64,000 nucleotides of DNA, from contig PDPP01000018.1 in NCBI GenBank assembly GCA_002747515.1, positions 21,751 through 85,750 of the forward strand, read 5' to 3'. The translations under genes and the position numbers were made by a program. Origin of the DNA: Candidatus Moraniibacteriota bacterium (lineage in GTDB: Bacteria; Patescibacteriota; Minisyncoccia; Moranbacterales; GCA-2747515). Positions within the stretch are counted from its first letter, which is position 1. Each line of letters begins with the position of its first letter. The notes beneath the pieces are model-generated. The model worked only from the letters and a program-made list of their open reading frames with translations. It was not told the origin of the DNA and searched no databases. Shown here piece after piece: positions 29,883 through 49,600 of this stretch.

Positions 29883-31046
<1,164 letters not shown>

Positions 31047-31272
31047 TCATTATCAAAAAATCTACACACTTCTTTATAAGAAAATAGCATTTTTCACCCC
31101 AAAACATGAATTAAAAAAATATTTTTTCCAATTTACTGATATGTTATAAATCATATATGCAGAAAATATACAAAATTATATATGTATAGTATCATGATTT
31201 ATCTTTTTGTAATATTTAGACTATTTAAAAACGATATATAAAATTTTTATATATCGTTTTAAAAACAACTTC

Positions 31273-31653
31273 TTATTGATGGATATGCAACTGTTTTTCT
31301 ATGAGCGTAAATACTTCAGAATATAGATTCGTAAAATGTACCAAATATTCCGAAATTTCCTCTCGTCTTTCACAGCTTGTTACTTGCATAAACATCTTAA
31401 TTTCGCTGAATTTTTCTACAGCACAGTCTATCTTATGCGGATCAATACCGCTATCATGTAATTCTGCAACGATCACCTCAAACTGAATGAGCAATGCTAA
31501 AGCAATTTTGCCTTTTTTTAATAAATACTCAATACCAGCTGGAATAATATTGTCCTCATAACCAATTTTTTCTGCGTGATTAAAAAACAACTCGATTGCA
31601 TCTGCCAATAATGTATTGTCAATTTCATTTTCAAATCCATTCCAATTATCCAT
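31273..31653 (-). CDS. Hypothetical protein, paralog B of a tandem pair (126 aa)
   Basis: Alignable with the upstream 127-aa ORF (DW..F, AIE.F, EGL.YL, A.A.LI..EV.V). Confidence 0.5.
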   Translation of the reverse strand: MDNWNGFENEIDNTLLADAIELFFNHAEKIGYEDNIIPAGIEYLLKKGKIALALLIQFEVIVAELHDSGIDPHKIDCAVEKFSEIKMFMQVTSCERREEISEYLVHFTNLYSEVFTLIEKQLHIHQ

Positions 31654-31677
31654 TATTACTTTCTCCTCTTATGATTA

Positions 31678-32061
31678 TTATGACCACATAATATGAGATT
31701 TTTGTGGAAGACAGATAAACGTATTTGGATATTCGTTACGCAAACCTTCGAGATATTGCAAAACTTCGTTTCGCTCTTGTATGTCAAGTAACTCTGCATA
31801 ATCCTGAATTTTCAAAAAAGATTCAATGATTACATTTTTAAATATATCCTCACATTCTTTTTTTTCACTCATCGAAACGAATACTTCAAGACTAATGAGA
31901 GATGCCATAGCAACTCTTTCTTGTTCTTTGAGATACTTAAGACCCTCTACAAAAGACTGTTCTGTTAAATTTTTTTCCATTATAAAAATATAAAATTTCT
32001 CAATGGACTCTTGCAAATTACATTCTACAATAGAATAGCCAAATTCTGCCCAATCAATCAT
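31678..32061 (-). CDS. Hypothetical protein, paralog A of a tandem pair (127 aa)
   Basis: See paralog B. 24-nt intergenic spacer, same strand. Confidence 0.5.
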   Translation of the reverse strand: MIDWAEFGYSIVECNLQESIEKFYIFIMEKNLTEQSFVEGLKYLKEQERVAMASLISLEVFVSMSEKKECEDIFKNVIIESFLKIQDYAELLDIQERNEVLQYLEGLRNEYPNTFICLPQKSHIMWS

Positions 32062-32151
32062 TTTGCATCCTCTTTTTTTGTTAAATTACTACTTCTTGTA
32101 AATCTAACAAAGAAATATACCATATTCTATTAAATTTATCAATAAAAAATA

Positions 32152-33567
32152 TTATTTTGCGTTTTTTATTTTTGCAAGACGTACAAGTCGAATATTTTCA
32201 TAAGAATATTTTTCAGAACATTTTTCATATATTGGTCGCAAAAATTCATCTCCACATACTTGAAATGCTTCTATGATTTCTTCTTGCACTTTTTTGTTTG
32301 GTAATAAATGTGTGATATCCACAGAATAATCGCTATTTTTTATTTCTTCTATATACTTTATAATTGTTTCCTTAGATATTCCTAACTCTTTTACAATTTC
32401 TTCTAGTGTTTTTTGTTTTTCTAATAATTCTTTTGTTTTGTTTAGTCGTGATTGTTTTGAATCGGATGTCATTCTATTACACACACGTTTTTTCTTTCTT
32501 ACTTTTTCTACGCTCTTCAATCCTTTTTGTAATTTTATTTCATTAATACACTCTATAAATACATCTGCATATTTAGCTAATTTTTGACGTCCTACACCAG
32601 AAATTTCTGCAAAAGCCTCTCGCGTTACTGGCAAATAATGCGCCATTTCACGAAGAGACACATCACCAAAAATGACAAAAGCTGGTACATTTTGTTCACT
32701 TGCAATGTGTGTACGCAACTCTCTCAAAGATGCAAACACATTTTCATCGAAATTCAATTCTTCTCTGCGCTTTTTTTCTGGGACAAATAATATACGTTTC
32801 TTTGTGATGCGTGGCAATTCTATATTTTCACGATTTTGGAGAAAATCTGCGCCTTTTTGTGATATGCGATAGGTATCATATTCCCCTGCATTACGCACGA
32901 CAAAACCTCTCGCAATAATATGTGTCATTATTTCTGCAATCTCTGCTGTAGAATATTCTTTTGCAATCCCCCACACAGATAATTTTTCATGTCCTCGAGA
33001 AATAATATTTTTATCTTTTGAGCCACGCAACACTTTTATCACATGCGCTTTGCCAAACATATTGCCCGTTTTATACACCGCAGATAATATCTTTTGCACA
33101 ATTTCTGTGGCATCCTCTGTATCATGTTCAGCAATACATACATCACACGTACCACACGGCTTCAATCCAACATCCCCAAAATATGATGTAATCCATTGCC
33201 ATCTGCAAATCCGAGCTTCTGCATAATCCATCACTTCTCGCATCTTTTTTTCTTCACTCATTCGCCTATTCTCATCCATCTCTTTCAAAAAATAATCCAA
33301 CTTCATTTTGTCTCCCGATGAATAAAAAAGCACACACTCACTCGTCAACCCATCACGTCCTGCACGTCCGATTTCTTGATAATATCCTTCTACTGTTTTT
33401 GGAAATGTCCGATGCACGACTAGTCGCACATCCGGCTTATCAATCCCCATACCAAATGCAATCGTCGCCACCACAACGCGCACTTTATCCATCACAAAAT
33501 CATCTTGGACACTGTCACGCTCTTCTGGTGTAAGTCCTGCATGATATGCTGCCGCTGGCACACCTTT
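32152..33567 (-). CDS. recQ: ATP-dependent DNA helicase RecQ, C-terminal portion (helicase C, RQC, HRDC, C-terminal extension); frame-disrupted relative to N-terminal portion
   Basis: AAAYHAGL...VVATIAFGMGIDKPDVRLVVH...YYQEIGRAGRDG; HRDC LRELRTHIASEQNVPAFVIFGDVSLREMA. Reading frame differs by 1 nt from the upstream fragment. Confidence 0.6.
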   Translation of the reverse strand, partial: KGVPAAAYHAGLTPEERDSVQDDFVMDKVRVVVATIAFGMGIDKPDVRLVVHRTFPKTVEGYYQEIGRAGRDGLTSECVLFYSSGDKMKLDYFLKEMDENRRMSEEKKMREVMDYAEARICRWQWITSYFGDVGLKPCGTCDVCIAEHDTEDATEIVQKILSAVYKTGNMFGKAHVIKVLRGSKDKNIISRGHEKLSVWGIAKEYSTAEIAEIMTHIIARGFVVRNAGEYDTYRISQKGADFLQNRENIELPRITKKRILFVPEKKRREELNFDENVFASLRELRTHIASEQNVPAFVIFGDVSLREMAHYLPVTREAFAEISGVGRQKLAKYADVFIECINEIKLQKGLKSVEKVRKKKRVCNRMTSDSKQSRLNKTKELLEKQKTLEEIVKELGISKETIIKYIEEIKNSDYSVDITHLLPNKKVQEEIIEAFQVCGDEFLRPIYEKCSEKYSYENIRLVRLAKIKNAK

Positions 33568-34333
33568 CTTGCACGAGAAATTGTGCAACTTCTTCTGTTT
33601 CTTTGCGGCTAAAACAATAAATAATTGCAGACTCTCCATCATGTTTTTGTAGCAAATGTACGATATGTCTATCCACACCACTTTTTGGCATCACACTAAT
33701 ATGCAAATTTTCACGATAAAAACCTGATACAAATACCTTGTAATCATGTAACCCTAATTCCTTGATAATATCTGTGCGCACATGCTCTGTAGCAGATGCT
33801 GTTAATGCAATAATAGGAATATGTGGAAAACGTGCACGAATTTTTTTTAAATTCCGATAATCTGGACGAAAATCATGTCCCCACTGCGAAATACAATGTG
33901 CCTCATCCACCGCAAGCGCAGTAACCGGCACACGTGCAAGCCAATTCTGCACATACGCATTTGCCAAACGCTCTGGCGCAATATAGATCAACTTATACCC
34001 TCCCGCCTCAGCAATCTGCATCCGTTCATCCAATTCACGGTTCGACACAGAAGAATTCAACATCGTCGCTGCAACACCATTGGCATTGAGTGCATCAACC
34101 TGATCTTTCATCAAAGAAATCAATGGAGAAATCACGATCGTCACACCATCACGCATAATAGCTGGCAACTGAAAACATAGGGATTTCCCTCCACCAGTCG
34201 GCATCACCACAACAGTATCTCCCCCAGCAGAAAAATGATCTATCACATCTTTTTGCACACTCCGAAATGCATCATGACCAAAATATTTTTTTAATAATTT
34301 TTCCATAAAAATAAATTCATATCTGTATAACAA
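33515..34333 (-). CDS. recQ: ATP-dependent DNA helicase RecQ, N-terminal portion (DEAH helicase domain 1), terminates prematurely after frame change near 33565
   Basis: MPTGGGKSLCFQLPA (Walker A), AVDEAHCISQWGHDFRP (DEAH box). Confidence 0.6.
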   Translation of the reverse strand: MLYRYEFIFMEKLLKKYFGHDAFRSVQKDVIDHFSAGGDTVVVMPTGGGKSLCFQLPAIMRDGVTIVISPLISLMKDQVDALNANGVAATMLNSSVSNRELDERMQIAEAGGYKLIYIAPERLANAYVQNWLARVPVTALAVDEAHCISQWGHDFRPDYRNLKKIRARFPHIPIIALTASATEHVRTDIIKELGLHDYKVFVSGFYRENLHISVMPKSGVDRHIVHLLQKHDGESAIIYCFSRKETEEVAQFLVQERCASGSISCRTYTRRA

Positions 34334-34484
34334 TAATATCTCTGATAATTATACACTAAAAATATAATAATAACTTATAGATTATATCCCTATTTTCACT
34401 TCTTCTACGAGTATTCTATACTACACAATAATAAAATCCCTCAAAACTATTCAGCCTTGAGGGACATGCCAAAAATTTATATTT

Positions 34485-35360
34485 TTAATTCAGGTTCTCA
34501 TAAGAAAACCGTATATTCTCAATTTCTTCTGATGTTGTTGGTCTTACCATCAAACCATTATCAAAATCTTTGTCAGTTAAGGCAGAGGTGCAATGTACAG
34601 CAACGTTTGGCATAACTTCCTCATCTATTCTATAACCAATAGCTGAAGTATTAGAAAAACTTGACACAGAACCTCGATGTAATTTGGCATAATGCCACGT
34701 TTTTCCACCATCCTTGGTATATTTAACAACTTTGCCCCTAAAATTTTCCAAATCCTCAAGGCACAAAATATCATTTTTTGTACGAAAAGGTTCTTTTTTT
34801 CCTCTTGCCTCCAAGATCAACTGATCCATAGCACTTCTTTTTTTGTAAGAAGCCGGTGCTTGTTCTTCTCGTAATGCATAATATTTATTTGTCAGATCCT
34901 CCCATATTTCACAAGATTTTCCAAAAGAAATATACTCTTTGCTAGAAGTTTTTATAATTGGTTCCGGTAAAACTTGATCGTCAATTTTATGAATTGAATA
35001 TACCGGCCCAAACACTCCCATTTCATTAGTAATCTTTTCTTTAAAAACCGTTACACCAAGCCTCTCAAATATCTCAGGAAGTTTTTCGTTCCAACTTCCA
35101 CTACCACTTCCCCAACAATTCCAGCAACCCCAAGGAGTCCAAATTTTACCAGGTTGACTATAATACATTTCCAAAAAAACACCTTGTTTTATTTGATTAT
35201 AAAACGGATTTACGCTTTCATCACGCCTATCATCAAGCCAAGGAACACCCTGATCACGCTCCACTTCCGCTGAAGCATACTCAAACATAAGATTAGCAAT
35301 GCTACGAATAGCAAGATAAAGTTGAAATTGAGTGAAATCGTTTTCTTTAGTTACTATCAT
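34485..35360 (-). CDS. Hypothetical protein (291 aa) with Trp/Cys-rich segment and a single BNR-like motif (TKDGGKTW)
   Basis: Clean ORF, no family assignable. Same strand and immediately downstream of the DenV-like gene. Confidence 0.45.
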   Translation of the reverse strand: MIVTKENDFTQFQLYLAIRSIANLMFEYASAEVERDQGVPWLDDRRDESVNPFYNQIKQGVFLEMYYSQPGKIWTPWGCWNCWGSGSGSWNEKLPEIFERLGVTVFKEKITNEMGVFGPVYSIHKIDDQVLPEPIIKTSSKEYISFGKSCEIWEDLTNKYYALREEQAPASYKKRSAMDQLILEARGKKEPFRTKNDILCLEDLENFRGKVVKYTKDGGKTWHYAKLHRGSVSSFSNTSAIGYRIDEEVMPNVAVHCTSALTDKDFDNGLMVRPTTSEEIENIRFSYENLN

Positions 35361-35510
35361 TATTCATTGTCTCCTGTTTTGATTTTGAAATTTATAAGAA
35401 CTTTAATGTATTACAACATATTTTAAAAAATAAGTCAAATGTTGTGAGGCTGGATTCAAGAAATTATTGCATGTAATATTATAATGTTAGTTTGTATAAA
35501 TGTTCCAATT

Positions 35511-35846
35511 TCACACACGACAATCACATTTTTTCTTTTTGAGAAGTTCTTTTTGTTCTGCAATTGTATTAATAAAAACATCTTGTACTACATCATTTTT
35601 AACCAAATCAAAGTCTAATGGAGAATTGTGATTGTATCCACGCTTTTTCATTTCTTTTACAAGCAGTTCATGTCTTTTATACAACGCACCCTCTTTTCCA
35701 ATCCACCTTTTTGTCTCTGGATGATGTGCATAGCCACCAACGCATCCATGTTTCGTGATAATATTCCACAATCCGTGCAATTCACGATGCTCTCCTAGTA
35801 AATGTTTTCTGCATAAATATCGCGGATGAATATCCCAAATTCTCAT
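35511..35846 (-). CDS. Pyrimidine dimer DNA glycosylase / T4 endonuclease V (DenV) family protein
   Basis: MRIWDIHPRYLCRKHLLGEHRELHGLW aligns with T4 EndoV [27 protein letters not shown] (catalytic N-terminus and Glu of EYREL). Upstream part of the 219-aa ORF is low-complexity and rejected. Start ATG 35844-35846. Confidence 0.55.
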   Translation of the reverse strand: MRIWDIHPRYLCRKHLLGEHRELHGLWNIITKHGCVGGYAHHPETKRWIGKEGALYKRHELLVKEMKKRGYNHNSPLDFDLVKNDVVQDVFINTIAEQKELLKKKKCDCRV

Positions 35847-36108
35847 AATATTCCTAGAATAAATACTATAAAAAAGTGTACCAAAATTTCTCAAAAAATA
35901 AAATAATTTGCAGAAATAATTATACAATGTACCACGAATGAAGACTAAAACTTTACAAATTATGTATAATGTGTTAGAATTTTCGGAACTATACATCCGT
36001 GTATAGATTACATAAATTTCAGGAGGACTATGAGGAGCATTGTTATTTAACATCACTAAAAGAAATATCAGAAGAAGTAAATTCCCTTTTTGGGAGGAGG
36101 TACCTTTT

Positions 36109-36660
36109 ATGGGAAAAGTATCGATACTCATTGACTTTTCAAATATTAATTCTGCGTTTGGTAAACTCAAAATTCAAAAGAGCTTACCATATGATATGAA
36201 GATTGATTACAATAAACTTGTTGCCCTTTTAACACGAAAGGGCAAGGAAATTGTGAGTAAAACTGTGTATTTACCCACTTACCCAAAACAACTGCACCAA
36301 TATCGTTTTTTTAATTCTTTGGAGCGAAACAACTTCTCAATCGTGACCAAAGAAGTCAAAGAAATTCACACGGGCCATGGCACTGTCCGAAAAGCAAATT
36401 TTGATGTTGAAATTGCTTTTGATGCATGTGCTCAAATTTACAGACGTGACTGTAATGAAATCATGCTGTTTTCCGGAGATTCGGATTTTGCATATTTGAT
36501 TGAAAATGCAAAAAACTTTGATTTCAAAATTACTATTGTCGCAACACGCGATAGCATATCTACCGAACTAGACGCTCTCGCAGACAATGTAATTCTCCTT
36601 GATGACCTAAATCTTGGGAGCTTTACTTTTTTGGAAAACAATGTTTGGAAAGTTGCATAA
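36109..36660 (+). CDS. NYN-domain (LabA-like, PIN-fold) putative ribonuclease
   Basis: MGKVSILIDFSNIN... with conserved acidic residues, typical NYN topology. SD GGGAGGAGG 8 nt upstream. Confidence 0.6.
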   Translation: MGKVSILIDFSNINSAFGKLKIQKSLPYDMKIDYNKLVALLTRKGKEIVSKTVYLPTYPKQLHQYRFFNSLERNNFSIVTKEVKEIHTGHGTVRKANFDVEIAFDACAQIYRRDCNEIMLFSGDSDFAYLIENAKNFDFKITIVATRDSISTELDALADNVILLDDLNLGSFTFLENNVWKVA

Positions 36661-36685
36661 TTTTCCTTGTTCCTTTGATATTTTT

Positions 36686-36724
36686 AAACCCTACATCTTA
36701 TTAATTGAGATGTAGGGCTTTTTC
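36686..36724 (+). terminator. Intrinsic terminator (CCCTACATCT/AGATGTAGGG stem plus T-run)
   Basis: 10-bp perfect stem followed by TTTTT, 25 nt after the NYN gene stop. Confidence 0.55.
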
Positions 36725-36822
36725 ATGTATTATATGTTGATATAATATATTATAAACCAAAAAGTGACATACATCGGGTTTTTGGTATAATAAAAGCATA
36801 TTAACCATTGATTATAAAAAAT

Positions 36823-37179
36823 ATGAAAATGAAAAGACTAATCATCGCCAGTATTTTGGGTCTGGTGTGTGGATTTATTTGCCTGGCATTCGCATCTAGT
36901 GCTGGGAGTGTGGCATTGCCAATTGCGGCGAGTATTGTGTCAGGCCGGTTTTTGATTGGTGTAGCGATTGGAGTGAGTCGCTTTGTGATGAAACACTGGA
37001 GTATTCACGGACTCGTGATGGGATTTTTATTCAGTCTTCCCAATGCTTTTGGTGCGATGAGTGTAGTTAATCCCGACTTTACGCCGATAATGATGTTTTC
37101 CTCAACCGTGATTATGGGGGTGATTTATGGATTTTTGATTGAACTTGTTACCAGTGTTTTGTTCAAAGCACAGCAATAA
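36823..37179 (+). CDS. Small polytopic membrane protein (about 118 aa, 3-4 TM), GC-richer than surroundings
   Basis: Hydrophobic segments throughout. The ORF-track start at 36808 is a TTG, so the ATG at 36823 was chosen. Confidence 0.45.
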   Translation: MKMKRLIIASILGLVCGFICLAFASSAGSVALPIAASIVSGRFLIGVAIGVSRFVMKHWSIHGLVMGFLFSLPNAFGAMSVVNPDFTPIMMFSSTVIMGVIYGFLIELVTSVLFKAQQ

Positions 37180-37450
37180 GATTTAATAATAAGCCCATGC
37201 CACGACTGCAAACGAAAAGAGATTTAATCAGCGTGTCACACAAGAACTACGAAAAGTTACTGACAATGATTGCTAAGATAAGCGAAGAAGCAACGCTTCA
37301 TCCAGAGAAAAAAGATGCACTGAAAAAATTGTTTTTTGGGGAATAAAGGTAAAATTTTGTAAATAAAAAGGTGATTCAAATAGCAATTCAAATCACCTAA
37401 TAGCTCATGTTTAACTCTATTAAAGTAGTGAGTTGATAAATTTTAATTTT

Positions 37451-38002
37451 TCACAAGCATTTAGTCGCTTCCTTAAAATCACCAATGTCTTTGATTGTCA
37501 CTATGCCGTTGCCACCACTTTGCAGATTGTGCAAACACATTTCCAAAGGCGTTGCTACACGGAACACTTTACCTGGCGGATGCCAAAAACCTGCTCTGTC
37601 CGCACCTGTTTCAGCACAATCCCAACGAAGACATCCTACATAAGAACTATGTTCCTCATTATAAAGTACAGCATAATCAGGCATTTTTAAGCCTTCACCC
37701 CTTGGGGAATAAAGGGTAATTGGATCACCAATAAAAATAACTTTTCCACACCAGGCACACCTTATCGCCATTTTTTCAAGACAACGATGGCAATATGCAG
37801 TTTTGCCGTTACTAATCGGAATTGCAATTTCACAACTTTCCCCAAAAGCTGTTACATTGTCTTTTTTCAGTGTTTTATGTCCGCAGTCAGCTACAATTTT
37901 TTTCTTGAAAATATTAAAGAACTTCATCTGCACCCTCCTATATTTTGAATTCACGAGTTTCACATTTAAATCAACCCTAGATAAAAATAGTTGTTTTGTC
38001 AA
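37451..38002 (-). CDS. Cys-rich hypothetical protein (putative Zn-binding; CHRC...CAWCG)
   Basis: 183-aa ORF. The true start may be the internal MKFFNIF. No family assignable. Confidence 0.4.
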   Translation of the reverse strand: MTKQLFLSRVDLNVKLVNSKYRRVQMKFFNIFKKKIVADCGHKTLKKDNVTAFGESCEIAIPISNGKTAYCHRCLEKMAIRCAWCGKVIFIGDPITLYSPRGEGLKMPDYAVLYNEEHSSYVGCLRWDCAETGADRAGFWHPPGKVFRVATPLEMCLHNLQSGGNGIVTIKDIGDFKEATKCL

Positions 38003-38204
38003 AAAAAGAGAATCAGTTTTTGCTATCTACGCCCAAAAAAATTACATCTTCTATGTCTTCTAATAACTAAAGTACAGTGATATAATTGAAGTAATTTAAC
38101 AACCTAAGTTTAATATAAAAATAACCTTGTAAATTATTAAAATTATTTCATTTTAGAATCCGAAAAATAGAATTTGGAAAAAATATTTATATTGGAATGA
38201 GAAA

Positions 38205-38717
38205 ATGAATAAAAACCACGTCCATATCTCCTATCACACAACCGCGATTGGTGAACTGCTCATCGGTAGTTTTGAAGGGAAAATTTGCATTGTGGATTTT
38301 CGGCATCGCGCAAAGAGAGAAATAGTGGACAGAAGAATCAGAAAAGGTTTGCGCGCTGATTTTGTAGAGCAAGAAGATTATGTAATCCAAGAAACGAAAA
38401 AACACATTGACGCATATCTTGCAGGCACACAACAGGATTTTACCGTGCCAATTCTGCCGATTGGAAGTGATTTTCAAAAACGCGTTTGGTGTGCACTTCA
38501 AGATGTGCCATATGGACACACCGCATCCTATACCGACATTGCACGAAACATCGGCAAACCACAAGCCGTCCGCGCAGTCTCGTCCGCTACCGCTGGCAAT
38601 GCCATCGCCCTCATTATCCCCTGCCATCGCATCATCTATACAAACGGCGCCATCGGCAACTACGCCGGTGGCAGTGTAGTAAAGAAAAAATTGCTGGAAA
38701 TTGAAAACCATAGGTAG
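38205..38717 (+). CDS. ogt: Methylated-DNA--protein-cysteine methyltransferase (O6-alkylguanine-DNA alkyltransferase)
   Basis: Active-site IPCHRII motif and helix-turn-helix. Gene is markedly GC-richer than the genome background. Confidence 0.8.
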   Translation: MNKNHVHISYHTTAIGELLIGSFEGKICIVDFRHRAKREIVDRRIRKGLRADFVEQEDYVIQETKKHIDAYLAGTQQDFTVPILPIGSDFQKRVWCALQDVPYGHTASYTDIARNIGKPQAVRAVSSATAGNAIALIIPCHRIIYTNGAIGNYAGGSVVKKKLLEIENHR

Positions 38718-38750
38718 TAACTTGCGATATAATTAAATTGAATAATATTT

Positions 38751-39416
38751 ATGCATAAACTTATGAAACTATTTCTTACCTCCAATGGATTGTCAAATCC
38801 GACACTAAAAAGTGAGTTTATTCGTTTTGTTGAAAAAAGTACTGAAGAAATTAGTATTGCATTTATTCCCACTGCTGCCAACATTGAAAAAGGTGGTAAA
38901 AAATGGCTAATTGACCATCTAAACAATATCAAAGATGTTGCGGGCTATATTGACATTGTTGATATTTCAGCGCTTCCCAGAAAAAATTGGCTGCCAAGAC
39001 TGGAAAAAGCTGATGTTTTGTTTTTTGGTGGTGGTAATTCTGGTTACTTGCTTGAGTGGATGAAAAAATCGGGATTAGAAAAGGACTTACCGAAATTATT
39101 AAAGACGCGAATTTATGCAGGGATTAGTGCCGGTAGTATGATCACCAATCCAACACTCTATCTTTCTTCTCGGGATTATCATTTGTATTACACAGATAAT
39201 ATGCAAAATGATCAAACACTTGCCTATACTAATTTTTATGTTAGGCCACACTTTGACTCCACCGACTTCCCTTATGTCAATCAAGAAAATATAAATGCAA
39301 TCAAAGGCAAAATACCTTATCCGATTTATGCACTAGATGATGATAGTGCTGTAGTTGTGGATGGTGAAGAGGTGACAGTTGTTTCTGAGGGAGATAAGTG
39401 GAGAAAATTTGAATAA
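38751..39416 (+). CDS. Peptidase S51 family protein (dipeptidase E-like)
   Basis: FFGGGNSGYLLEWMKKSG...AGISAGSMIT matches the S51 nucleophile-Ser region. Confidence 0.65.
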   Translation: MHKLMKLFLTSNGLSNPTLKSEFIRFVEKSTEEISIAFIPTAANIEKGGKKWLIDHLNNIKDVAGYIDIVDISALPRKNWLPRLEKADVLFFGGGNSGYLLEWMKKSGLEKDLPKLLKTRIYAGISAGSMITNPTLYLSSRDYHLYYTDNMQNDQTLAYTNFYVRPHFDSTDFPYVNQENINAIKGKIPYPIYALDDDSAVVVDGEEVTVVSEGDKWRKFE

Positions 39417-39452
39417 CTTTTTTAAATATTTCCTAATCATTAACGTATCCTT

Positions 39453-40253
39453 ATGTCAAAAATTAAACCACAACTGGGTAATGTGCCGGAAACATTACTC
39501 ATTCCGCTGCGGGCGCGGAGCAATGAAACAAAGTTGGAAAACGGGATTATCAGTGATCCCAAATCGGTGGAAATCGTTCAGAAAATTGAATCTAACACCA
39601 AAGAAAAAGGTGAAGTATCGATGAGTTCACAAAAAGGCGTAGCTGTGCGCACTGAAATTTTGGATGAATTGACGCAAAAGTTTTTGAAGAAAAACCCCGA
39701 TGGCACAGTGGTCAATTTGGGTTGTGGATTAGACACACGCTATTATCGTTTACATAATAATCAAGTGCGTTGGTTTGATTTGGATGTACCAGAAGCAATT
39801 GCACTGCGCAAAAACTTTTTTACACCAACTGAAAAGTATCAGTTTATCAGTAAATCAGTGCTGGATTTTTCGTGGAACGATGTAATCCCACAAGATAAGC
39901 CGATTTTATTTATCGCCGAAGGGTTGCTCATGTATTTTACTGAAGCGGAAGTGCAATCAATTTTCACAAATATTGCAAAACAATTCCCCGGATCGGAAAT
40001 GATTTTTGAAGCGATGTCACCGTTTGTTGCCAAAAATTCTAGCAAACATGCTGATGTAAAGAAATACGACGCAGAATTTAAATGGGGCATCAAAAGCGGC
40101 ACGGAAATAGAAAATTGGAATATTGGCGTGCGATTTATCACTGAATATTTTTACAATCGCCATTTGGATAAAATGCCTTTTGTGATGCGATTTATGTTTA
40201 CATTGCCTTTTTTCAAAAAAGCAATGAAAATTGTGCATGTGAAGTTTAAGTAA
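39453..40253 (+). CDS. Class I SAM-dependent methyltransferase, TcmP/LCMT-like (putative O-methyltransferase)
   Basis: VVNLGCGLDTRYYRL motif typical of the leucine carboxyl methyltransferase/TcmP family. Confidence 0.6.
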   Translation: MSKIKPQLGNVPETLLIPLRARSNETKLENGIISDPKSVEIVQKIESNTKEKGEVSMSSQKGVAVRTEILDELTQKFLKKNPDGTVVNLGCGLDTRYYRLHNNQVRWFDLDVPEAIALRKNFFTPTEKYQFISKSVLDFSWNDVIPQDKPILFIAEGLLMYFTEAEVQSIFTNIAKQFPGSEMIFEAMSPFVAKNSSKHADVKKYDAEFKWGIKSGTEIENWNIGVRFITEYFYNRHLDKMPFVMRFMFTLPFFKKAMKIVHVKFK

Positions 40254-40320
40254 AGGCCTGCTTCATGGTTAAAATAGTACATTGATAAATGACAAAACCA
40301 TCAGCACCAAAACTATTATT

Positions 40321-40622
40321 CCCCTTTTGTATCAATCCACAACTGTTGATTTTCTGGACACCCTATTTCTCCGTCTGAGAGATCTTTTTCGCACCAGTTA
40401 TAGATTTCACCGTTGAGATAGACTGTTACAGTGTCCACTGTGTCAAATTAAAATGCCGCGCGGTCAATGAGCGCACGCAATTCCGACAAAACATAGTGAT
40501 CTAGTCCATGCATATCACCACTGAGGTAGACACGTGCATTACCGTCAGACAGCATCACAGTGTCATAATTCAAAAATGTATACAATTGCACAGTATTACG
40601 ATATCCTGATAATGTCTTTAAA
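40321..40622 (-). pseudogene. Decayed coding remnant (about 100 codons open in one frame with a single internal stop), GC-rich
   Basis: Minus-strand frame reads GLKTLSGYRNTVQLYTFLNYDTVMLSDGNARVYLSGDMHGLDHYVLSELRALIDRAAF*FDTVDTVTVYLNGEIYNWCEKDLSDGEIGCPENQQLWIDTKG. No start codon. Composition unlike the surrounding AT-rich DNA. Confidence 0.3.
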
Positions 40623-40827
40623 CCACACTATCAAAAAGTTTTTTATATGTAATATTCAAAACACTTTGTGTATGCTCTACTTCATATGACACAAAAAATA
40701 ACCTACCGTAATTATACCGTGATTTAGAACATGGCACTACTTATTTTTTTATTACATTACTATTTATAACAAAAAATACCGTGTATACAACAGTATTTTT
40801 TGTGCCAATATAATTAGAATAAGATAT

Positions 40828-42027
40828 TTATCCAAACATGAGAACATCCGGCTTGAAAATCATGAGTACACCAATGATAAGCATCACGATACCACCAATA
40901 ATTTGTGCGATGCGTGTGTATTTGCTACTAAGACCCGTAATTTTAAATGTAATCATCGCTGCAGCAAAAACGATAAGGTCATCCAACATGAAAATAAAAA
41001 TGTAAAATAAGATATATCCATAATACCCTGCCCGTGATAAATCACTCAGCGTCAAAAGTTGGATAAAAACCGCTGGCAATCCCGCACTACACACCAATTC
41101 CACCAAATTAACGACAAACGCCAAAATAGTAATGCCGATAAGTGCTAAAAATAATTGCTTCTTCTGAATAATACTTTTGAGTTTTTCAAAAACTTTTTGT
41201 TGTTTTGTACCTGATGATACTTTGCATGTCCCAGCGGGATTGGTGACATATTCATGGATACTCCGAATTCCCAGTCCTACTGCCAATACACCAATCACCA
41301 GACGAATCCACGGGATAAATTGGATAAATGTCAACACATTGAGCCACGCCACCATAAAGAGAAAATACACAAATGCAGACACTGCGATAAATGTCGTCCC
41401 TAAAATCCACATCTTCCGACGATCTTTGAGCCCCAAAAGAAGTGTAATAAGAAAAATCAGCACCCACATCGCACACGGATTAAATCCATCTGCCGCGGCA
41501 ATCAGTAGTGTAATCGCACCGAGTGAGTATGTACCTGCATCAACTGTACCGAGAAATGGGAGTGTTACTGGTTGTGCATCAGCATCGTGCTGGACATTCG
41601 CAACATTACTACAATCACTGCAAATAGTACCAACAACATTTTTTCCACCATTCGTATGCATATCTTCTACTTTTTGTACAATTGCCTGACCAGTGGATTC
41701 TGCACTCTGCCATCCGACAAAATATTCGTCACCCACAACAGTAAACGGCACACCAGATACATTCACCATTAGCTCTTTACCCACTTTTTTGAGCAAATCA
41801 ACATTTTGTGCATTTTGCGTCACTTCAAAATCATGTACTGTCACATAGTCTTTTTCACGCGCGAGCGCTTCGAGAAATGGTTTTTCACTCTCACAATGCG
41901 GACAACCAATTGCCCAAAAAAAATATATATCTACCCCATTATCATTTACGATAACCTCCTCTTGTGCATTTACATATACAAGAGGAAATAAAATCAAAAA
42001 ACTGAAAAATATAATTTTTTTCAACAT
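40828..42027 (-). CDS. Thiol:disulfide interchange protein: N-terminal exported thioredoxin-fold domain (CPHC) fused to DsbD/CcdA-type transmembrane domain
   Basis: Signal peptide, WAIGCPHCE CxxC motif, then multi-TM region with conserved Cys (NPCAMWVL...CSAGLP) as in CcdA/DsbD. Confidence 0.65.
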   Translation of the reverse strand: MLKKIIFFSFLILFPLVYVNAQEEVIVNDNGVDIYFFWAIGCPHCESEKPFLEALAREKDYVTVHDFEVTQNAQNVDLLKKVGKELMVNVSGVPFTVVGDEYFVGWQSAESTGQAIVQKVEDMHTNGGKNVVGTICSDCSNVANVQHDADAQPVTLPFLGTVDAGTYSLGAITLLIAAADGFNPCAMWVLIFLITLLLGLKDRRKMWILGTTFIAVSAFVYFLFMVAWLNVLTFIQFIPWIRLVIGVLAVGLGIRSIHEYVTNPAGTCKVSSGTKQQKVFEKLKSIIQKKQLFLALIGITILAFVVNLVELVCSAGLPAVFIQLLTLSDLSRAGYYGYILFYIFIFMLDDLIVFAAAMITFKITGLSSKYTRIAQIIGGIVMLIIGVLMIFKPDVLMFG

Positions 42028-42066: not shown

Positions 42067-42930
42067 TTATAAATTAGCAAATAATTTAATTTTCTTATAC
42101 ACGACATCATAAACATTCTTTCGCACCTTGTCCATATATTTATACGGCGTAACTGAATCATTTTCTTTCAATGATTCTTCTAAACCATCACGAAACGCTT
42201 TGCGAATTTCTGTATTTACATGCACTATGCGAATACCTGCTTTAATCCCTTGAGAAATTTCCAAATCACTAATTCCTGATCCTCCGTGCAATACTAAATG
42301 ACAATCCAACACTTCTGATAAAGATTTGATTAAATCAATATCAAGATATGGATTTCCACCTTTTACAATTCCATGAATATTTCCAACTGATGGCGCAAAG
42401 AGATCTATTCCCGTTTCTTCAGCAAACTTTTTTGCCACATCTGGATGTGTTTTGTCATCATTTGCACCTTCTGGTACTTCATTGAGTAAAGTGCTCGAAG
42501 AACCAATGTATCCATGCTCTGCTTCTACCAAAATATTTCGTCCTTCCTCACTCTCAACTTTTTTCACATAATCAACACATTTCTTTGTCAATTCAACATT
42601 TTGATCAAATGGCAGTTTTGATCCATCAATCATTACACTATCAAACCCTGCATTTACAGCCTTTTCAATTCCTGTAAAATCATGTGTATGATCCGCATTG
42701 ATAAAAATTGGGTAATCATATTCATTTGCAATACTTTGTACGAGTGATACTGCTTGACGCACACCTATAAAATTTCTCTCACCCTCTGAAACACCAATAA
42801 TAACTGGTTGTTTGAGCTCGCGTGCCGCATCAAATATCGCCCACAAAGCTTCCACATTTGAAATATTAAAGTGTCCAATAGCTATTTTTTCATATTTTGC
42901 CCGATCAAGGCAGTTTTTTAATGATTTCAT
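42067..42930 (-). CDS. fba: Class II fructose-bisphosphate aldolase (FBA/tagatose-bisphosphate aldolase family)
   Basis: 287 aa. His-rich Zn-binding motifs (NADHTHDF, LVLHGGSG). Confidence 0.8.
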   Translation of the reverse strand: MKSLKNCLDRAKYEKIAIGHFNISNVEALWAIFDAARELKQPVIIGVSEGERNFIGVRQAVSLVQSIANEYDYPIFINADHTHDFTGIEKAVNAGFDSVMIDGSKLPFDQNVELTKKCVDYVKKVESEEGRNILVEAEHGYIGSSSTLLNEVPEGANDDKTHPDVAKKFAEETGIDLFAPSVGNIHGIVKGGNPYLDIDLIKSLSEVLDCHLVLHGGSGISDLEISQGIKAGIRIVHVNTEIRKAFRDGLEESLKENDSVTPYKYMDKVRKNVYDVVYKKIKLFANL

Positions 42931-43615: not shown

Positions 43616-46600
43616 TTATAATCCTCCCACCTCTAATTGGAAATCGCGTGAGATTTGTGGACCTCCTGCCCCAGAGATATCCACATCAAATGAATAATCC
43701 AACGTCTCAATTCCACCAGTTGTTCGCTCGTGATCAAAATAAACTGCTATACCATTATTTAGATCAAATGGTGACGTTGTTGTTGCACTTACTGGCACCG
43801 TTCCTGGAAATGGTGGAAATGTAAACTGTGAATTTACTGTTTGTGTTGACATCTCAAAAAGCTCCGTATCTGCTTGTGTGAACACGCCACTATTCGACAC
43901 ATCTCTAAATGTTATAAATGCTTCAGAATTGTTGAGACCTATATCATTTGTAGCTGCTTTTATTACACGATATCTTTCTGAATTTCCACTTGTTGCACCT
44001 ACAACTGATATTGTTGGACTGTTTAGTTGATCCTCGAGAAGTGTCGGCACATAATAACCCATATTTGCATTGTAAATGCGTGGCGCATACGCCTGATCTG
44101 CTGTACGAAGATATATACGCACACGCACACAACTGTGATCACTGACAATATCATCCAAAAACGCCTGTTGCGTATTTGTCGTATATGTTACATCCGGATT
44201 TGATGTATCTACTGACGACGCGATAACTGTCGGTGTAATTGATGTATACGTGTATGATGCTGTGTTACATGTTGGTGATGGATCGGCATACCCCACTTCA
44301 TAACTCACTTGTTCCACACCATTTTGCCCACTACGCGAATTCACAAGCTCTTCCCACGTAATGTCACGCCAATAAGTGTGCTCACCATATGTCAGTGTAC
44401 TTGTATCAAGCGTGTATTCCGCATATGCTTCAAAATCATTGCCTGTTGTCGTGCTGTCGCGTCCTGATTCATAAAATAATCCCTCTTCATAATCCGGCTG
44501 ATCATGCACCGGCTCTACATACGCACGTTTACGCACCTGTGGCCATGTCAACCATGATGTTTCATCTGTAACGGCTGCATTTAAATGATGTTCATAATAT
44601 GCATATACCGGCTCTGTACATTGTAAGCTGTATCCCGCATCAAAATAGGCACCATCAGTTGTGTCCGCACCACCAATATGAATACGATTTATGTATGGAT
44701 CTGTGCGTGTACCACCTGTTTGTGGCGGAATATTATTCATTGTGCCCGTACTATCCGTGGTCACTTCTGCACCGGTGTCATCATACACGCGACATGTCAC
44801 GTTTGCATCGCGTGCCACAATACTAAAGTATTGCGCAGGCTGAGATAATACATATTCATCACTAAACTCTTTCTGTGAAAGAAACGTCACTGTTTCAATA
44901 CCATCATAATCTGCAAGACTATTTGCACCAATTGGCGCATCAGACACAATGTGATATCCCATAGCAGTTCCCTGTGCGCCACTACCGGACTCTTCATACA
45001 CAAAGTTATTTGAACTGTTGAGCACAATAGTGGAGGATGTGCCATTGCTTCTATAAATCGTCACATTTGCATCAGAACTTGCCGCAAGAAGCATGTTGCT
45101 ACTTCCAATACCATATAATTCATAGCTACCGGAGTCCTCCTCAAGAGCAAGGTGTGTTGGATAGAGAATCTGCGAATCTCCAACGCCAGCCCGATGAAAC
45201 GCAAGAATCGGTTCATCAGAAAGAATTCTAAACGCACGATTATTTGTAATATCCTGTGCGACATTCATCGCACCATCTTCTCCCACAAAAACTGTTTGTA
45301 GATCAACCCACCCACTAGGACCACTTTCTTGGATATGAACTTCTGTATCAGCAAATGGTGCATAAAAACTAAATGCATCTGTATCACGATTAACGTGATA
45401 CACAAATTCCGTACCGGCATATGCGATCGGCAGTGCTGCTTCTGTTGTATCACTGGTAAATGCTGCATGGATTGGACCGTTAACACTATACACTTCCGCT
45501 TGCACATTATCGGTAGGAGACGAAAATGGCAAAGTAACAATTTCACCTTCATCGACAGTCTCAGAATTCGCACTATCATTTACACTATTGTTATCCGCAA
45601 AAGAAATAAGTGATGGCGTATTTCCTACCCATAGATTATCTACAATATAATAATTCGTTTTTTCGTCTTGTGTGCGAAAAATGGCATCATGATCGCCGGT
45701 TGTTGTGAGAGCTGATGATGTGCCGGAAATCCATTTTTCCGTGAGATATGTCTCAATTTCTGATACCTCTGCTGCTGTCAGTTGTTTATCAAAAACAATA
45801 AATTCTCCAAGTGTAATATCTTGTTCATAAGTACCACTCGGATACCCAGATAACATGAAGTCACTATTACTTCCTGTAAAACTGATACCATTGTTGTCAC
45901 TGGCAATATTTGTTCCATCACGTGCAATAGACCGCGGTCCACTACTGTGCGCTTCATAGCGCATGACATGAAAATCAGTTGTGTCGCCCCCATATGCTGC
46001 TGTAAGATAACCGGAGTTTCCTTGTTGATAATACACCGTCATATTCCACGGTGACCATGCCGCATAACGACCACCACTGAGATTTTCATAAAACAACGCA
46101 CCATTTTCCGGTAAAACATCATTACGAAATACCGCAAAAACATAGGAGTCGTTATGTGTGCTTGTTCCCCAAATACCGTTATCTATAGCCATGTGGTCAG
46201 ATGCAAATTGAAGATATTGATTGTCGCCAACCGTTATCACTGTTGGCTGATTATTGCCAGACGCCTCCGCATCAAAATTATTTCCCGACTTATCATCCCA
46301 CTGCGATACATTCCCGCCAGAAGTTGATAATGTCGCTGTATCAAGTGCATCCAACCACACATGCGGACCATACGTGGATAGATCAATTGTTGGCTGATAG
46401 TAGATATATGCTGTTACAGAAGAACTTGCTCCAATATTTGCAAACTTTATCCACATGTCACCAGCATTTGTGGTATCATCATAATTCTCAAGTGAATAGG
46501 TGATATTATCTGTCCCATCTCCCGCACTACCGGCAACACGAATATCACCACCATCGGATTGTGCACGACCAAAAACCGTGCTCACATCCGCACCCAAATC

Positions 46601-49600
46601 AATACGCATTTGATATTCTGTGAGATTCGTCGAAGATGGATTATTAACAGTAATCGGTACACGTCGCATCCACACGTGCGTTCCATCAATACTCCACGCA
46701 CCGGTTTCTTCTGCACCGGCGGTGTAGTTTGGCGTTGGATAAATAAACTGTTTGTTTTGCACTTCATTCCACGCATTATGCTCATCATTGACGTTCCCTT
46801 CTTCATAATATGCAGAAATCGGATTGTCTGCCACAATACATGCGCCTTTTGCAATGTGTACACCACTTGATGTAGATCCAAAATACGCTTTACCTGGATA
46901 TGTCGCAGCGGCTGTCACAGTGACTGTATCATCCGGCGTGCCAGTACCACATGCCGTACCATCATTATAGAGGTCAACGGTTGTCGTACGCCCTTCTTTT
47001 GTCGCAATCGCAATGTATTGCATGTCTTCTGGAAAATAATAACGATACCCCATCTCATGTGTTGGTAAAAATGTTGTTGCTTCACCACCATCACCATCTG
47101 CAAGTGAATTGACACCAATTGGCCCATCTGCTACGACACGGTGTGCCGGTTCCGATCCTTGTGATCCCGCATCGTTAATCACGTGATTATCACCACGGTT
47201 TAACGTGTAATTCGCCGTTGTGCCATCACTGCGATACACCGTGACATCTGTGGCATCATATAATGCAGCAATTTCAAGTCTACCAGATCCCACACCATAC
47301 CACTCTTCAGATGCCGGTGCCATCACAAAACTATCACTCCCATTTGTTGCATGATGCGTGACGAGAATTGGACAACTGTTTGTCGACTCAATCATCACAG
47401 CAGAATCATTACTTAGTCCCGTCGTTGCATTATTGTCTGTTGTGAGATTGTAAAAATCACCTGTTGTAACAGTAAATGATCCATTTGTCACAATGTTGTT
47501 ATTTTCATTGCGCACCTCCACATTTGCATCACACCACGGCGAAATAAAAGAAAATGCATTTGTCCCACGATCCATGCGATACACAAACGCCGTACCAGCA
47601 AAACTCGCCGGCACAAAGTTATCCGCTCCATCTACACCATACCCGCCACTAATCGGGTCAGTTGTAGAAATACCTGTTGTTTGCTCAATTGTTGCAACAT
47701 TTGACACTGGAAATGCGTGTGTATCTGCCTCATATTGGTTCAATGTATCATTATATGTTTCAACAGAAATCTCATTGTTATCAATATAACTGGCAAATTC
47801 AGTCGTAGACCCATTTGCCGTGTCTTGCACAACGTAGTAAATATCTTCTCGGTTTTGATACGTAAATACTTCCTCACGTGACGCAATATCCGCTGCACCG
47901 GTATTGCCATAATACATGCATACTTCTTCCGTTTCGCCTGCATCAATATTGTCCATTTCAAGCCACACACGTGTTGACGCCGTATTCATGTCGTCCGCGA
48001 CATAATGATGCAGGACATTTTCATCACTGTCGATAAATCGTATATCACTACCATCGGATTGCATTTTACCGTCAGTAACCAATGTTTCTGTATCAAAATC
48101 AAGATAAATTTGGTATTCTGTGAGGTCTGCAGCACTTGCTTGTGTGTGATCCACAGTAAAACACTGACGATACTTCCACACACTGTATTCATTGCTATTC
48201 AACGTCACACACAAAAGCTCCGGACTCATTGTGTTGTTGTCCGTCTCAAAAAATGCGCGCCACTGCACGTAACGATTATCCGAGATACCCGTCAAAGGCA
48301 ATGCCGGCAAATTCACTGTGTCATTCATGAGTTCCGTATAATATGTGCTACCTGTACCATCCGGACCAATAAATGATTCCCCAGAACACGCTGCATCATC
48401 ACAACTACGCACTTGAAATTTCAAACGATTTGCACCACGTCGATACTGATCATATACTTCTTCATCAGTTAACACATCACTCCAAAATGATACTTCATCA
48501 AGATTGCCCTGGTAATAATGATGTGCTCCACCGGAATCATGCATGCGACCAATGCTATCAAAATATTCTGTCTTATTACCGGTATCGGATATCGCTGTGT
48601 CTTCTAAAAACCCATCAACATACACTGCGACTTCGCCACTCGTTGCATTACGCGTCAGTACCACATGATGCCACTGACCATCATTGATTACCGTTGTACT
48701 TTCAGCACCAGCTATATTCCCTGCTTGCACGGCAATGTGGCCACTGCCCGTAATATAGCCCCAAAAAATATCATTACCACCACCAGCTTGCTCTGATCCT
48801 GTAATTCCTGGAGCATTCCATGGTATATTAGAACCATTTTGTGTCGTATTCATCCAAAAAGCCATGCTTGCCGTGCCACCAATGATATTACTAAGATCTT
48901 GGTTAAAATTAACAATATCATCCGAACCATCAAATCCCAATGCATTGCCTAATTTACCACCCTGATTCCACTGCGATCCATTATATGATCCATTTCCCGT
49001 TACGCCAGAAGTATCTGCGATTGGATTTGCAGATTCGTTGAGATGCACAAGTAAAATATTGTCACTCATATCCACATTACCATCACTATACACCGATTCA
49101 ACGCCAAGCGCGTCCGGCAATTCTTTCTCTGTTGGTCGCGTTGATGTCCATGTAATATCTGACCATGCAATCACAGAACCCGCATCAATAATATCTGATT
49201 CATACGTCCCAGCACCTGCTGCCAAACCACTAGATGTTAAATCCACCCACGCATTTGTATTATCCCACTCCGTATCGATAAAATTCCCCTGCAAAAATGC
49301 ATTGGCCGAGCATGTTTGAATATACTCGCCATCCCACCAATCTGTACGCACAGTGTCCGCTGGATGGTCACCATACGAACCGATTGTAAGATAATCATCC
49401 ACTCCTGCAATCGCCACGAGGTCGTCTTCACCAGTCTCAAAATTCCCATTTGAGTAACTCCCACTATCAAATTCTGCTTTTGAATCAGCTGTAGCAACTG
49501 TACGTGTTTCATATTTCAAAATATCAAGTCCTGCACCCACCACATTCTCACTTTCTGTAAAATTTTGCACACGAATTTCTGCCTCAATAAATTGTGGTCC

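Follow-up and report, generated by a model that had tools for sequence, protein, structure and literature searches.

A variable accessory-gene module upstream of tgt in a Candidatus Moraniibacteriota bacterium, with at least one gene from an unrelated phylum

Chromosomal hotspots, or regions of genomic plasticity, hold variable gene content between conserved core genes. In Patescibacteria, up to 13% of genome length has been attributed to horizontal gene transfer, with exchange taking place mostly among members of the group itself and occasional donors from other phyla (PMC12455944, mSystems 2025). The locus described here lies in a window of 64,000 nucleotides from contig PDPP01000018.1 of an ultra-small Candidatus Moraniibacteriota bacterium and resembles the islands reported in that study in combining accessory genes, a non-syntenic site and a streamlined CPR genome. 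An initial annotation had interpreted positions 36800-40700 as a compositionally distinct, GC-richer block and a horizontally acquired island. The block is, however, best taken as an accessory module of an ordinary kind, located upstream of tgt at a site of variable content, and not as a discrete mobile island. Probably, the stretch 36786-40695 represents a copy, compact and in part eroded, of a variable module of accessory genes that has been remodelled gene by gene and is of mixed origins. Genes and signals at the site are as follows:

29153-29872, yfiH/Cu-oxidase_4, adjoining tgt
29883..31025, minus strand, tgt, conserved anchor on the left, with yfiH/Cu-oxidase_4 next in line
31026..40827, no strand, the whole variable segment of 9.8 kb, for which the relatives L002 and L095 have no counterpart between tgt and the DsbD-like gene
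32152-34333, RecQ, frameshifted
35511-35846, Pyr_excise
36106-36660, NYN
36764..36791, plus strand, promoter-like site GTGACA-16-TATAAT with TG (11/12 matches, a consensus match only), just 5' of the membrane protein gene
36808..37179, plus strand, small hydrophobic membrane protein of 123 aa, possible start at 36823, 92% aa identity to L089:839-1198
37197..37346, plus strand, DUF1706 (DinB-like) gene reduced to its 5' part, first 31 codons 81% identical to intact genes
37369..37398, minus strand, terminator-like hairpin of 13 pairs with a T run, 3' of the Cys-rich gene
37451..37927, minus strand, Cys-rich protein of 158 aa from an uncharacterised family, true start the ATG at 37927
38205..38717, plus strand, Ogt (O6-alkylguanine-DNA alkyltransferase) of 170 aa, Pfam DNA_binding_1, PCHR motif IIPCHRII
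38751..39416, plus strand, member of the Peptidase S51 family resembling PepE or cyanophycinase, GISAGS nucleophile motif (Pfam 85.6 bits)
39453..40253, plus strand, LCM/TcmP-like SAM-dependent O-methyltransferase, LCM domain at 62.7 bits versus a Pfam cut-off of 22.3
40321..40695, minus strand, GerMN-like lipoprotein pseudogene (intact form 226-228 aa), residues about 105-226 kept at 73% identity
40828..42027, minus strand, thioredoxin-like and DsbD-like membrane protein, right anchor of the conserved position
42067-42930, aldolase, which adjoins the DsbD-like gene together with the giant protein

In L002 and in the complete genome L095, both Moraniibacteriota, the order giant protein, small membrane protein, aldolase, DsbD-like gene, (HAD), tgt and yfiH is contiguous, with the DsbD-like gene directly adjoining tgt in the former and one HAD gene lying between the two in the latter. 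The window keeps this order with 9.8 kb separating the DsbD-like gene from tgt, comprising two small ORFs, RecQ, a 291-aa unknown protein, Pyr_excise, NYN and the block. Also in the closer relatives L092 and L093, gene content upstream of tgt differs from the block: L092 (tgt 80% identical) has only RecQ beside tgt in common with the window, and L093 shows RhuM, Zeta-toxin and Mrr at the same site, that is, a toxin-antitoxin and restriction-type set. Presence or absence in sister genomes had been proposed as a check; the block is missing at this site in L002, L095, L092 and L093, and gene order supports a non-core block that is not syntenically conserved. The extent first assigned to it was too narrow, as the variable region has its left limit at 31026 or 34334 and its right limit at 40827. 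The junction is informed by four relatives only, all of them distant (tgt 70-80% aa), so that insertion here is not formally separable from loss elsewhere. A metagenome scan with the DsbD-like protein was uninformative for the site, returning 80 loci that are all at most 53% identical and have no block genes nearby. The sequence L003 ends right after the DsbD-like gene and offers no information on the site either. With respect to function, Ogt, which stands for repair of alkylation damage, adjoins other non-syntenic repair genes in the window, namely RecQ and a DenV-like glycosylase.

The genes already named for the block, Ogt, Peptidase_S51, LCM/TcmP-like protein, 123-aa membrane ORF and Cys-rich ORF, could all be located, as could the decayed fragment, at 40325-40695 on the minus strand. 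For the membrane protein, no match was obtained in Pfam, NCBIfam, PADLOC or PHROG, and it falls into no curated family. The DNA_binding_1 domain (PF01035) of Ogt scores 102.9 bits against a Pfam gathering cut-off of 27, and the active-site Pro-Cys-His-Arg motif is present as read in translation (LIIPCHRIIYTNG). The Peptidase_S51 domain (85.6 bits versus a gathering cut-off of 23.9) covers profile positions 1-205 of 206, while the protein stays below the NCBIfam equivalog cut-offs for both PepE (NF003642, 35.3 versus 156) and cyanophycinase (TIGR02069, 20.6 versus 126.6) and is, judged from these profiles, a family member without assigned specificity. The LCM protein scores 76.1 bits with the curated TIGR00027 subfamily, under the cut-off of 93.55, and 'TcmP-like' therefore denotes a resemblance and not demonstrated membership. 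With 33 nt between ogt and S51, 36 nt between S51 and LCM and no terminator in between, these three genes are probably co-transcribed. The Cys-rich gene is divergently adjacent to ogt; 7 Cys and 1 His are conserved in its family, and an alignment-based AlphaFold model reached a pLDDT of 94.7 (a single-sequence model, at 31.6, was useless), but Foldseek searches with the predicted fold against PDB and BFVD gave no match. Two gene remnants in the block are confirmed. Intact DUF1706 genes (178 aa) are present in the metagenome contigs L089, L090 and L091, whereas the window copy is unrelated after codon 31 and runs into a stop. The GerMN-like pseudogene has a TAA replacing Gln (40447-40449), one frameshift and has lost its N-terminal signal/lipobox part, and the block does end in a decayed gene, as had been proposed.

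The supposed compositional contrast, a block reaching roughly 45-50% GC locally on a background of about 30%, was upheld only in part. Window GC is 35.1% (0.351), and the local value applies to ogt only (0.46 gene-wide, 0.55 at 38520-38690), not to the membrane ORF (0.43), the remnant (0.41) or the Cys-rich ORF (0.39). At 37.3% (0.373), the block is just 0.75 SD above the window and is matched or exceeded in GC by 19.6% of 3.9-kb windows, and its tetranucleotide correlation with the rest of the window (r = 0.944) is that of equal-sized windows (mean 0.95, sd 0.068). The block is thus not compositionally distinct in bulk GC or tetranucleotides. The strongest outlier in the window is instead the gene for a 2102-aa protein at 43.6-49.9 kb (GC 0.42-0.44, tetranucleotide r 0.64), which is syntenic in relatives. 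Hence, bulk GC is a poor guide here, with a conserved giant gene as top outlier and a variable module that is normal except at third codon positions.

At these positions the block does stand out. GC3 of ogt (0.456), the membrane gene (0.427) and LCM (0.390) are the top three values among 53 genes in the window, and the block-gene mean of 0.37 compares with 0.240 (sd 0.05) for genes outside 31026-40827 (Mann-Whitney p=8e-4; p=0.024 versus other plus-strand genes only). When amino-acid content is controlled, GC3 z is +7.1 for ogt, +5.5 for LCM and +3.8 for the membrane gene; Cys-rich (+1.7) and S51 (+1.0) are therefore unremarkable. By codon usage, ogt is the window's most atypical gene (z -7.9). 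Since z values of -4 to -5 also occur among plus-strand genes in other parts of the window, the codon atypicality of the block is partly a strand effect with only ogt clearly beyond it, and this strand-confounded measure was given weight for ogt only. The synonymous-site signal as such is real. Moreover, neighbouring block genes differ widely in GC3, and in L089 and L091 each of the five orthologues has a higher GC3 than its window copy.

L089, L090 and L091 are short metagenome contigs without core genes, whose hosts were assigned from a single NCBI label (P0002) and from similarity to the window. Their corresponding segments are 80-87% identical to the window in nucleotides; protein identities are 92% for the membrane protein, 80% for Cys-rich, 80-83% for Ogt, 84% for S51 and 87% for LCM. 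Homology with L089 begins at 36786 and extends over 36786-40695. Cys-rich lies next to ogt in L091 as in the window, and in L089 S51, LCM and the GerMN gene likewise follow the window's order, with EamA and a 5' stub of LCM placed after S51. Shared segments are, however, interleaved with DUF1706, NUDIX, APH, ORF6N, EamA, MazG, SSF and TauE genes in the sister contigs. In L089, duplicated stretches from the end of the adjacent gene (46 bp and 140 bp, 89% identical), by now diverged, enclose a two-gene insert and EamA. Altogether, at least four related sequences have copies of the module, and the cassettes of the sister copies range in GC3 from 0.26 to 0.53. Acquisition in one piece from one donor is not supported, as related contigs interleave the same genes with different single-gene insertions. 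A terminal hairpin repeat of L089 and L090 (CCTGAA..TTCAGG) is not found in the window. Circularity of L089 and L090 was considered and rejected, as terminal overlap is missing.

The clearest case of foreign origin is LCM. Its closest relatives outside the module are proteins from Bacteroidota and Ignavibacteriae MAGs (70-78% aa) in non-CPR gene contexts, pointing to transfer between phyla. The non-CPR copies are about 75% identical to the window in nucleotides. In a neighbour-joining tree without support values, in which most close homologues carry no taxon label, the four copies from the module group into a single clade within non-CPR diversity. Core tgt, by comparison, shows a smooth identity gradient that is down to 70-80% aa already within Moraniibacteriota, and its named matches are all CPR. 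Identity of Ogt drops from 80% to at most 63% beyond the module copies, where further matches are of mixed phyla and one, at 59%, sits in a gammaproteobacterial-type context; judging from this distribution, ogt probably also came from outside CPR. At least one block gene comes from an unrelated phylum, which is already-known behaviour for organisms of this kind.

Uptake of the block once and as a unit, as a discrete genomic island from a GC-richer foreign donor, would account for raised GC3 in ogt, the membrane gene and LCM, for the terminal pseudogene, for absence from the site in relatives and for limits (36786-40695) coinciding with the extent of homology to L089. We nevertheless consider it unlikely. 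None of the remnants looked for around the block was found: Pfam scans of ORFs of at least 50 aa at 24.8-42.9 kb gave no integrase or recombinase, and PADLOC and PHROG added none; no tRNA or tmRNA lies at the block, the sole tRNA being tRNA-Leu at 6385-6469, about 25 kb off, and Rfam scans showed nothing relevant; direct repeats in 30800-41100 are only short two-copy matches of chance size, none bracketing 31026/40827 or 36786/40695. BLAST of the block against phages and plasmids yielded two weak methyltransferase matches on plasmids and zero in phages, and no relatives came up in IMG/VR with LCM, Ogt or an alignment of the Cys-rich family as query. An integron array was likewise rejected: there is no IntI, attC sites would not fit into gaps of 33 and 36 nt, and a search for recurrent imperfect inverted repeats gave none. 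Normal bulk composition, host-like GC3 of S51 and Cys-rich, single-gene variation and the GC3 spread among sister copies also speak against a single uptake, as do nearest outgroups that are unlike from gene to gene (FCB-group for LCM, mixed phyla including Proteobacteria for Ogt). Of the island claim, the non-core site and the cross-phylum relatives of LCM hold, but not the island marks, nor descent as one piece from one donor.

Even less probable is an ancestral Moraniibacteriota region that was inherited vertically, was lost in relatives and owes its GC3 to local mutation or selection and not to transfer. The occurrence of the module in several related sequences, the adjacency of RecQ and tgt common to the window and L092, and the lack of mobility genes are all compatible with it. 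However, LCM is as similar to its Bacteroidota and Ignavibacteriae relatives as tgt is within Moraniibacteriota, the window's three top-GC3 genes cluster in the block, and site content is different in each of the four relatives. An artefact of assembly or binning, with a non-CPR fragment joined into a CPR contig, is very improbable. In its favour, the MAG represents a complex community, other phyla contribute close homologues of LCM and Ogt within the same project, and a second module variant (PID51886.1, accession near the window's PID52241.1) makes strain mixing in the bin possible. Against it, CPR-syntenic genes lie on both sides of the segment in one 100-kb contig, internal junctions are reproduced in the independent contigs L091 and L089, and nucleotide identity with the non-CPR copies reaches just about 75%.

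According to the gene-by-gene remodelling that we favour, the module would be shared by a set of related Ca. Moraniibacteriota (CPR/Patescibacteria) populations and would lie where genes turn over rapidly, bordered by the conserved aldolase/DsbD-like genes on one side and by tgt-yfiH on the other. There, it would change by insertion and deletion at gene borders and not by a self-mobile element. The LCM-type methyltransferase would have come into the CPR lineage from a donor of Bacteroidota/Ignavibacteriota type. The GC3 of ogt, LCM and the membrane gene, raised and yet lower than in sister copies, would fit gradual adjustment to an AT-rich host. Since mobility genes are not present, we suggest that DNA might enter by uptake, followed by homologous or illegitimate recombination. 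The block genes probably act independently of each other: Ogt is predicted from sequence to move O6-alkyl groups from guanine onto the PCHR cysteine, the S51 protein would be a peptidase of Ser-His-Glu type with dipeptides or cyanophycin-type substrates as targets, the LCM protein a putative SAM-dependent O-methyltransferase and the Cys-rich protein possibly of zinc type and, like the membrane protein, without known function. It is a speculative and improbable extension that the site upstream of tgt is a dedicated gene-shuffling locus, with single genes swapped at their borders through recombination of duplicated gene ends like those in L089, and that the Cys-rich protein could be a new Ogt partner; if true, streamlined CPR cells would be able to sample the genes of their community with no need for a mobile element.

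The region provides a worked example of accessory gene gain and loss in a streamlined CPR bacterium without recognisable mobile elements, including one clear case in which a gene was imported from bacteria of the Bacteroidota/Ignavibacteriota group that live in the same community. As horizontal transfer and islands in Patescibacteria are already documented, current understanding is unchanged. With its DNA_binding_1 domain, PCHR motif and typical length of 170 aa, the block Ogt is like the Ogt/MGMT suicide alkyltransferases; its N-terminal domain is just below the Pfam cut-off (20.6 versus 21 bits), and unlike many 238-aa homologues it lacks an Ada-type N-terminal fusion. The locus is reminiscent of integron cassette arrays in its short, mostly co-oriented and functionally unrelated genes gained or lost singly at borders, but IntI and attC-sized gaps are missing and the L089 inserts are bracketed by duplicated neighbour-gene ends. 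As in hotspots, the aldolase/DsbD-like and tgt-yfiH genes enclose content differing in every relative examined, a likeness based on four distant relatives and three short contigs. Compared with the islands of PMC12455944, the block, with normal bulk GC and tetranucleotides and no mobility genes, would likely be missed by composition-based callers; it was recognised by synteny and its mosaic sister copies, and not by IslandViewer-type signals.

The block at 36800-40700 is an ordinary accessory module, if a well-resolved one, and occupies a variable site of a CPR genome; one of its genes is a clear import from another phylum. The contig of origin (100,256 bp) belongs to a Candidatus Moraniibacteriota MAG (Parcubacteria, Patescibacteria/CPR), and its Ogt, Tgt and LCM proteins are identical to NCBI entries labelled as such. 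All genes listed in the initial annotation could be located:

36808-37179, hydrophobic 123-aa ORF (membrane gene)
minus strand, Cys-rich ORF
38205-38717, Ogt (Pfam DNA_binding_1, 102.9 bits)
38751-39416, Peptidase_S51 protein (S51)
39453-40253, LCM-family methyltransferase (LCM)
near 40.3-40.7 kb, decayed gene fragment

In translation, Ogt bears the PCHR motif and S51 the GGN, GISAGS and PH motifs. S51 scores below the equivalog cut-offs for PepE and cyanophycinase, and LCM below that of the TIGR00027 subfamily. These are functionally unrelated accessory genes, of which ogt, S51 and LCM probably share a single transcript. A strong promoter-like site is found upstream of the membrane gene, and hairpins lie downstream of the NYN gene and of the Cys-rich gene.

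The gene order around the block was compared with that of related genomes. Two other Moraniibacteriota MAGs encode aldolases with 66-69% identity to that of the window. The contiguous order in one relative (L002) is giant protein, small membrane protein, class II aldolase, thioredoxin/DsbD-like membrane protein, tgt and yfiH. The complete genome CP175956.1 has the same order, plus one HAD gene ahead of tgt. The flanks in the window follow this order, but an additional 9.8 kb separates the DsbD-like gene at 40828-42027 from tgt at 29883-31025. This segment holds two small ORFs, RecQ, a 291-aa unknown protein, a T4 DenV-like pyrimidine-dimer glycosylase, an NYN-domain protein and the block. The closest relative found (L092, tgt 80% identical) shares RecQ beside tgt and continues beyond it with unrelated RimK, GIY-YIG, DUF4178, metallophosphatase and radical-SAM proteins. 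In a 1.18-Mb relative (L093, tgt 75%), positions 1-9900 upstream of tgt carry two RhuM genes, MazE, a Zeta toxin, a DNA-methylase fragment and Mrr, a set resembling a defence and toxin-antitoxin cluster. Given these differing contents, the site upstream of tgt is variable in all genomes compared, and the lineage-specific part spans about 34334-40827.

Several further features were observed in and around this segment. A single frameshift within 33566-33612 divides RecQ (32152-34333, minus strand) into two ORFs that overlap, with residues 1-247 and 232-709 aligning in separate frames to the intact 709-aa RecQ of L092; this is either a genuine pseudogene or a MAG consensus error. The glycosylase (Pyr_excise, 35511-35846, minus strand, 95.7 bits) lies inside the segment. 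A near-perfect palindrome with 20-nt arms (TTTAAAAACGATATATAAAA / TTTTATATATCGTTTTAAAA) lies at the left edge of the segment (31224-31264), in the gap that separates tgt from the nearest small ORF. Just past yfiH, a stand-alone GGDEF diguanylate cyclase (28056-28787, minus strand) takes the place where relatives encode a class II (tRNA-synt_2b) tRNA synthetase. The thioredoxin/DsbD-like protein (minus strand) is conserved in position and shows 27-31% identity to the proteins at the same place in L002 and CP175956.1, against 50-53% to proteins on three metagenome contigs (L009, L010 and L037). Its gene likewise has a raised third-position GC (GC3) of 0.343 and may have been swapped in place for a distant homologue.

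Besides the exact match, searching with Ogt gave three proteins at 80-83% identity, one of the three labelled Moraniibacteriota, followed by matches at 63% or less. These three proteins lie on short contigs (L089, L090 and L091) that carry sister copies of block genes and belong to the metagenome assemblies GCA_002754885.1 and GCA_002754915.1. In run SRR6011893, the contig bearing the window's own aldolase (L001) occurs together with an exact copy of the Ogt of another GCA_002754915.1 contig (L098/L099), which ties the window to the sample set of the sister contigs. Common segments are 80-87% identical in nucleotides to the window and arranged in mosaic order:

L089: RhuM, membrane (92% aa), DUF1706, 127-aa ORF, NUDIX, APH, Ogt, ORF6N, S51 (84%), LCM 5' stub, EamA, LCM (87%), GerMN-like lipoprotein
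L091: NYN, DUF1706, MazG, Cys-rich (80%), Ogt
L090: DUF1706, SSF, TauE, 206-aa ORF, DUF218, Ogt, 236-aa ORF, AEP-helicase, 191-aa ORF, GerMN-like lipoprotein

Homology of the window to L089 covers 36786-40567, extending to 40604 with L090, so that the limits initially drawn from sequence inspection match this extent almost exactly. Breakpoints between window and sister contigs coincide with gene borders. None of the sister copies is as compact as that of the window, which is also eroded. The decayed gene proposed at the end of the block is indeed present, as 40325-40695 retains residues ~105-226 of a 226-228-aa lipoprotein, with TAA replacing Gln, one frameshift and the signal/lipobox part gone. 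A second remnant, not listed initially, is a 49-codon ORF at 37197-37346 (plus strand), in which no more than the N-terminal 31 residues of a DUF1706/DinB-like protein remain (37197-37289); the gene of this protein is intact in all three sister contigs.

In L089, two gene ends are duplicated as direct copies of 89% identity: the DUF1706 3' end (1921-1966 versus 3078-3122), bracketing the 127-aa ORF and NUDIX pair, and the LCM 5' end (6492-6631 versus 7659-7798), bracketing EamA. Both may be footprints of gene insertion. Short hairpin repeats (CCTGAAnTTnTTTCAGG) occur at 9271-9287 and 9427-9443 of L089 and at 9602-9618 of L090, and the last 60 nt of these contigs are identical, suggesting that the sister modules are bordered on the right by a dispersed repeat at which their assemblies break. 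This hairpin repeat was not found in the window.

Regarding composition, the initial annotation overstated the figures. Total GC of the block is 37.3% versus 35.1% in the window (+0.75 SD; a value matched or surpassed by 19.6% of equal-sized windows), and the proposed local values of roughly 45-50% hold for ogt only (46% gene-wide, 55% at 38520-38690). Tetranucleotide correlation with the rest of the window is 0.944 (equal-sized windows: mean 0.95, sd 0.068), a deviation equalled or exceeded in 15% of equal-sized windows. A signal at synonymous sites, however, is real. The top three GC3 values among 53 genes belong to ogt (0.456), the membrane gene (0.427) and LCM (0.390), and block genes average 0.372 versus 0.240 outside 31026-40827 (Mann-Whitney p = 8e-4; p = 0.024 against other plus-strand genes only). 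Conditioned on the amino acids of each protein, the excess amounts to z = +7.1 for ogt, +5.5 for LCM and +3.8 for the membrane gene, falling to +1.0 in S51 and +1.7 in the Cys-rich gene. In codon-usage likelihood, ogt is the most extreme gene of the window (z = -7.9); as plus-strand genes elsewhere reach -4 to -5, a strand effect accounts for part of this atypicality. The strongest compositional outlier is the gene of a 2102-aa LamG/DUF2341 giant protein (43616-49924, minus strand; GC 0.42-0.44, tetranucleotide r 0.64), yet three Moraniibacteriota relatives retain this gene in synteny, with 56-58% aa identity. Hence, bulk composition predicts foreignness poorly in this genome.

For LCM, there is good evidence that the gene reached the CPR lineage from another phylum. 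At least 14 clusters beyond the module copies show 70-78% identity, the three named ones all being Ignavibacteriae and Bacteroidetes MAGs, whereas the housekeeping tgt is already at 70-80% within Moraniibacteriota. Neither of the two homologue contexts inspected is of CPR type (MMPL transporter, DUF1302/DUF1329, BNR/sortilin, sulfotransferase and a conserved pair of UbiE-methyltransferase and LCM). The four module copies group as a single clade in a neighbour-joining tree computed without support values, sister to this Bacteroidota/Ignavibacteriae group and nested in non-CPR diversity. A foreign origin of Ogt is less strongly indicated, by the identity gap from 80 to 63% with matches of mixed phyla thereafter and by one 59% homologue in a gammaproteobacterial-type context (RnfH, RatA, SmpB, Tag and DNA_alkylation). 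For each of the five genes in common, GC3 in the sister contigs exceeds that of the window copy (ogt 0.47-0.53 vs 0.46, LCM 0.52 vs 0.39, membrane 0.49 vs 0.43, S51 0.41 vs 0.28, Cys-rich 0.39 vs 0.31). This fits a window copy drifting toward its AT-rich host; alternatively, the hosts of the sister copies could be GC-richer.

Overall, the initial observation is confirmed in part, and its reading as a horizontally acquired island is supported in part. Domain scans of the segment and its surroundings gave no integrase or transposase, the window's only tRNA is 25 kb off, no direct repeats bracket the segment, and no similarity of the block to phages, plasmids or viral contigs was found. Lacking these marks, the region behaves like a plasticity zone reshaped by recombination rather than like a self-mobile island; the uptake route of the DNA is inferred. 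An integron was rejected in view of gaps of 33-36 nt and the lack of IntI.

The most interesting by-product is the family of the Cys-rich protein, comprising 590 clusters at 50% identity with seven conserved Cys and one His. Its AlphaFold model, built from the alignment, is confident (pLDDT 94.7), and no match was obtained in Pfam, PDB sequences, PDB-Foldseek or BFVD. The block itself is of low novelty, as horizontal gene transfer and islands have previously been described in Patescibacteria (PMC12455944).
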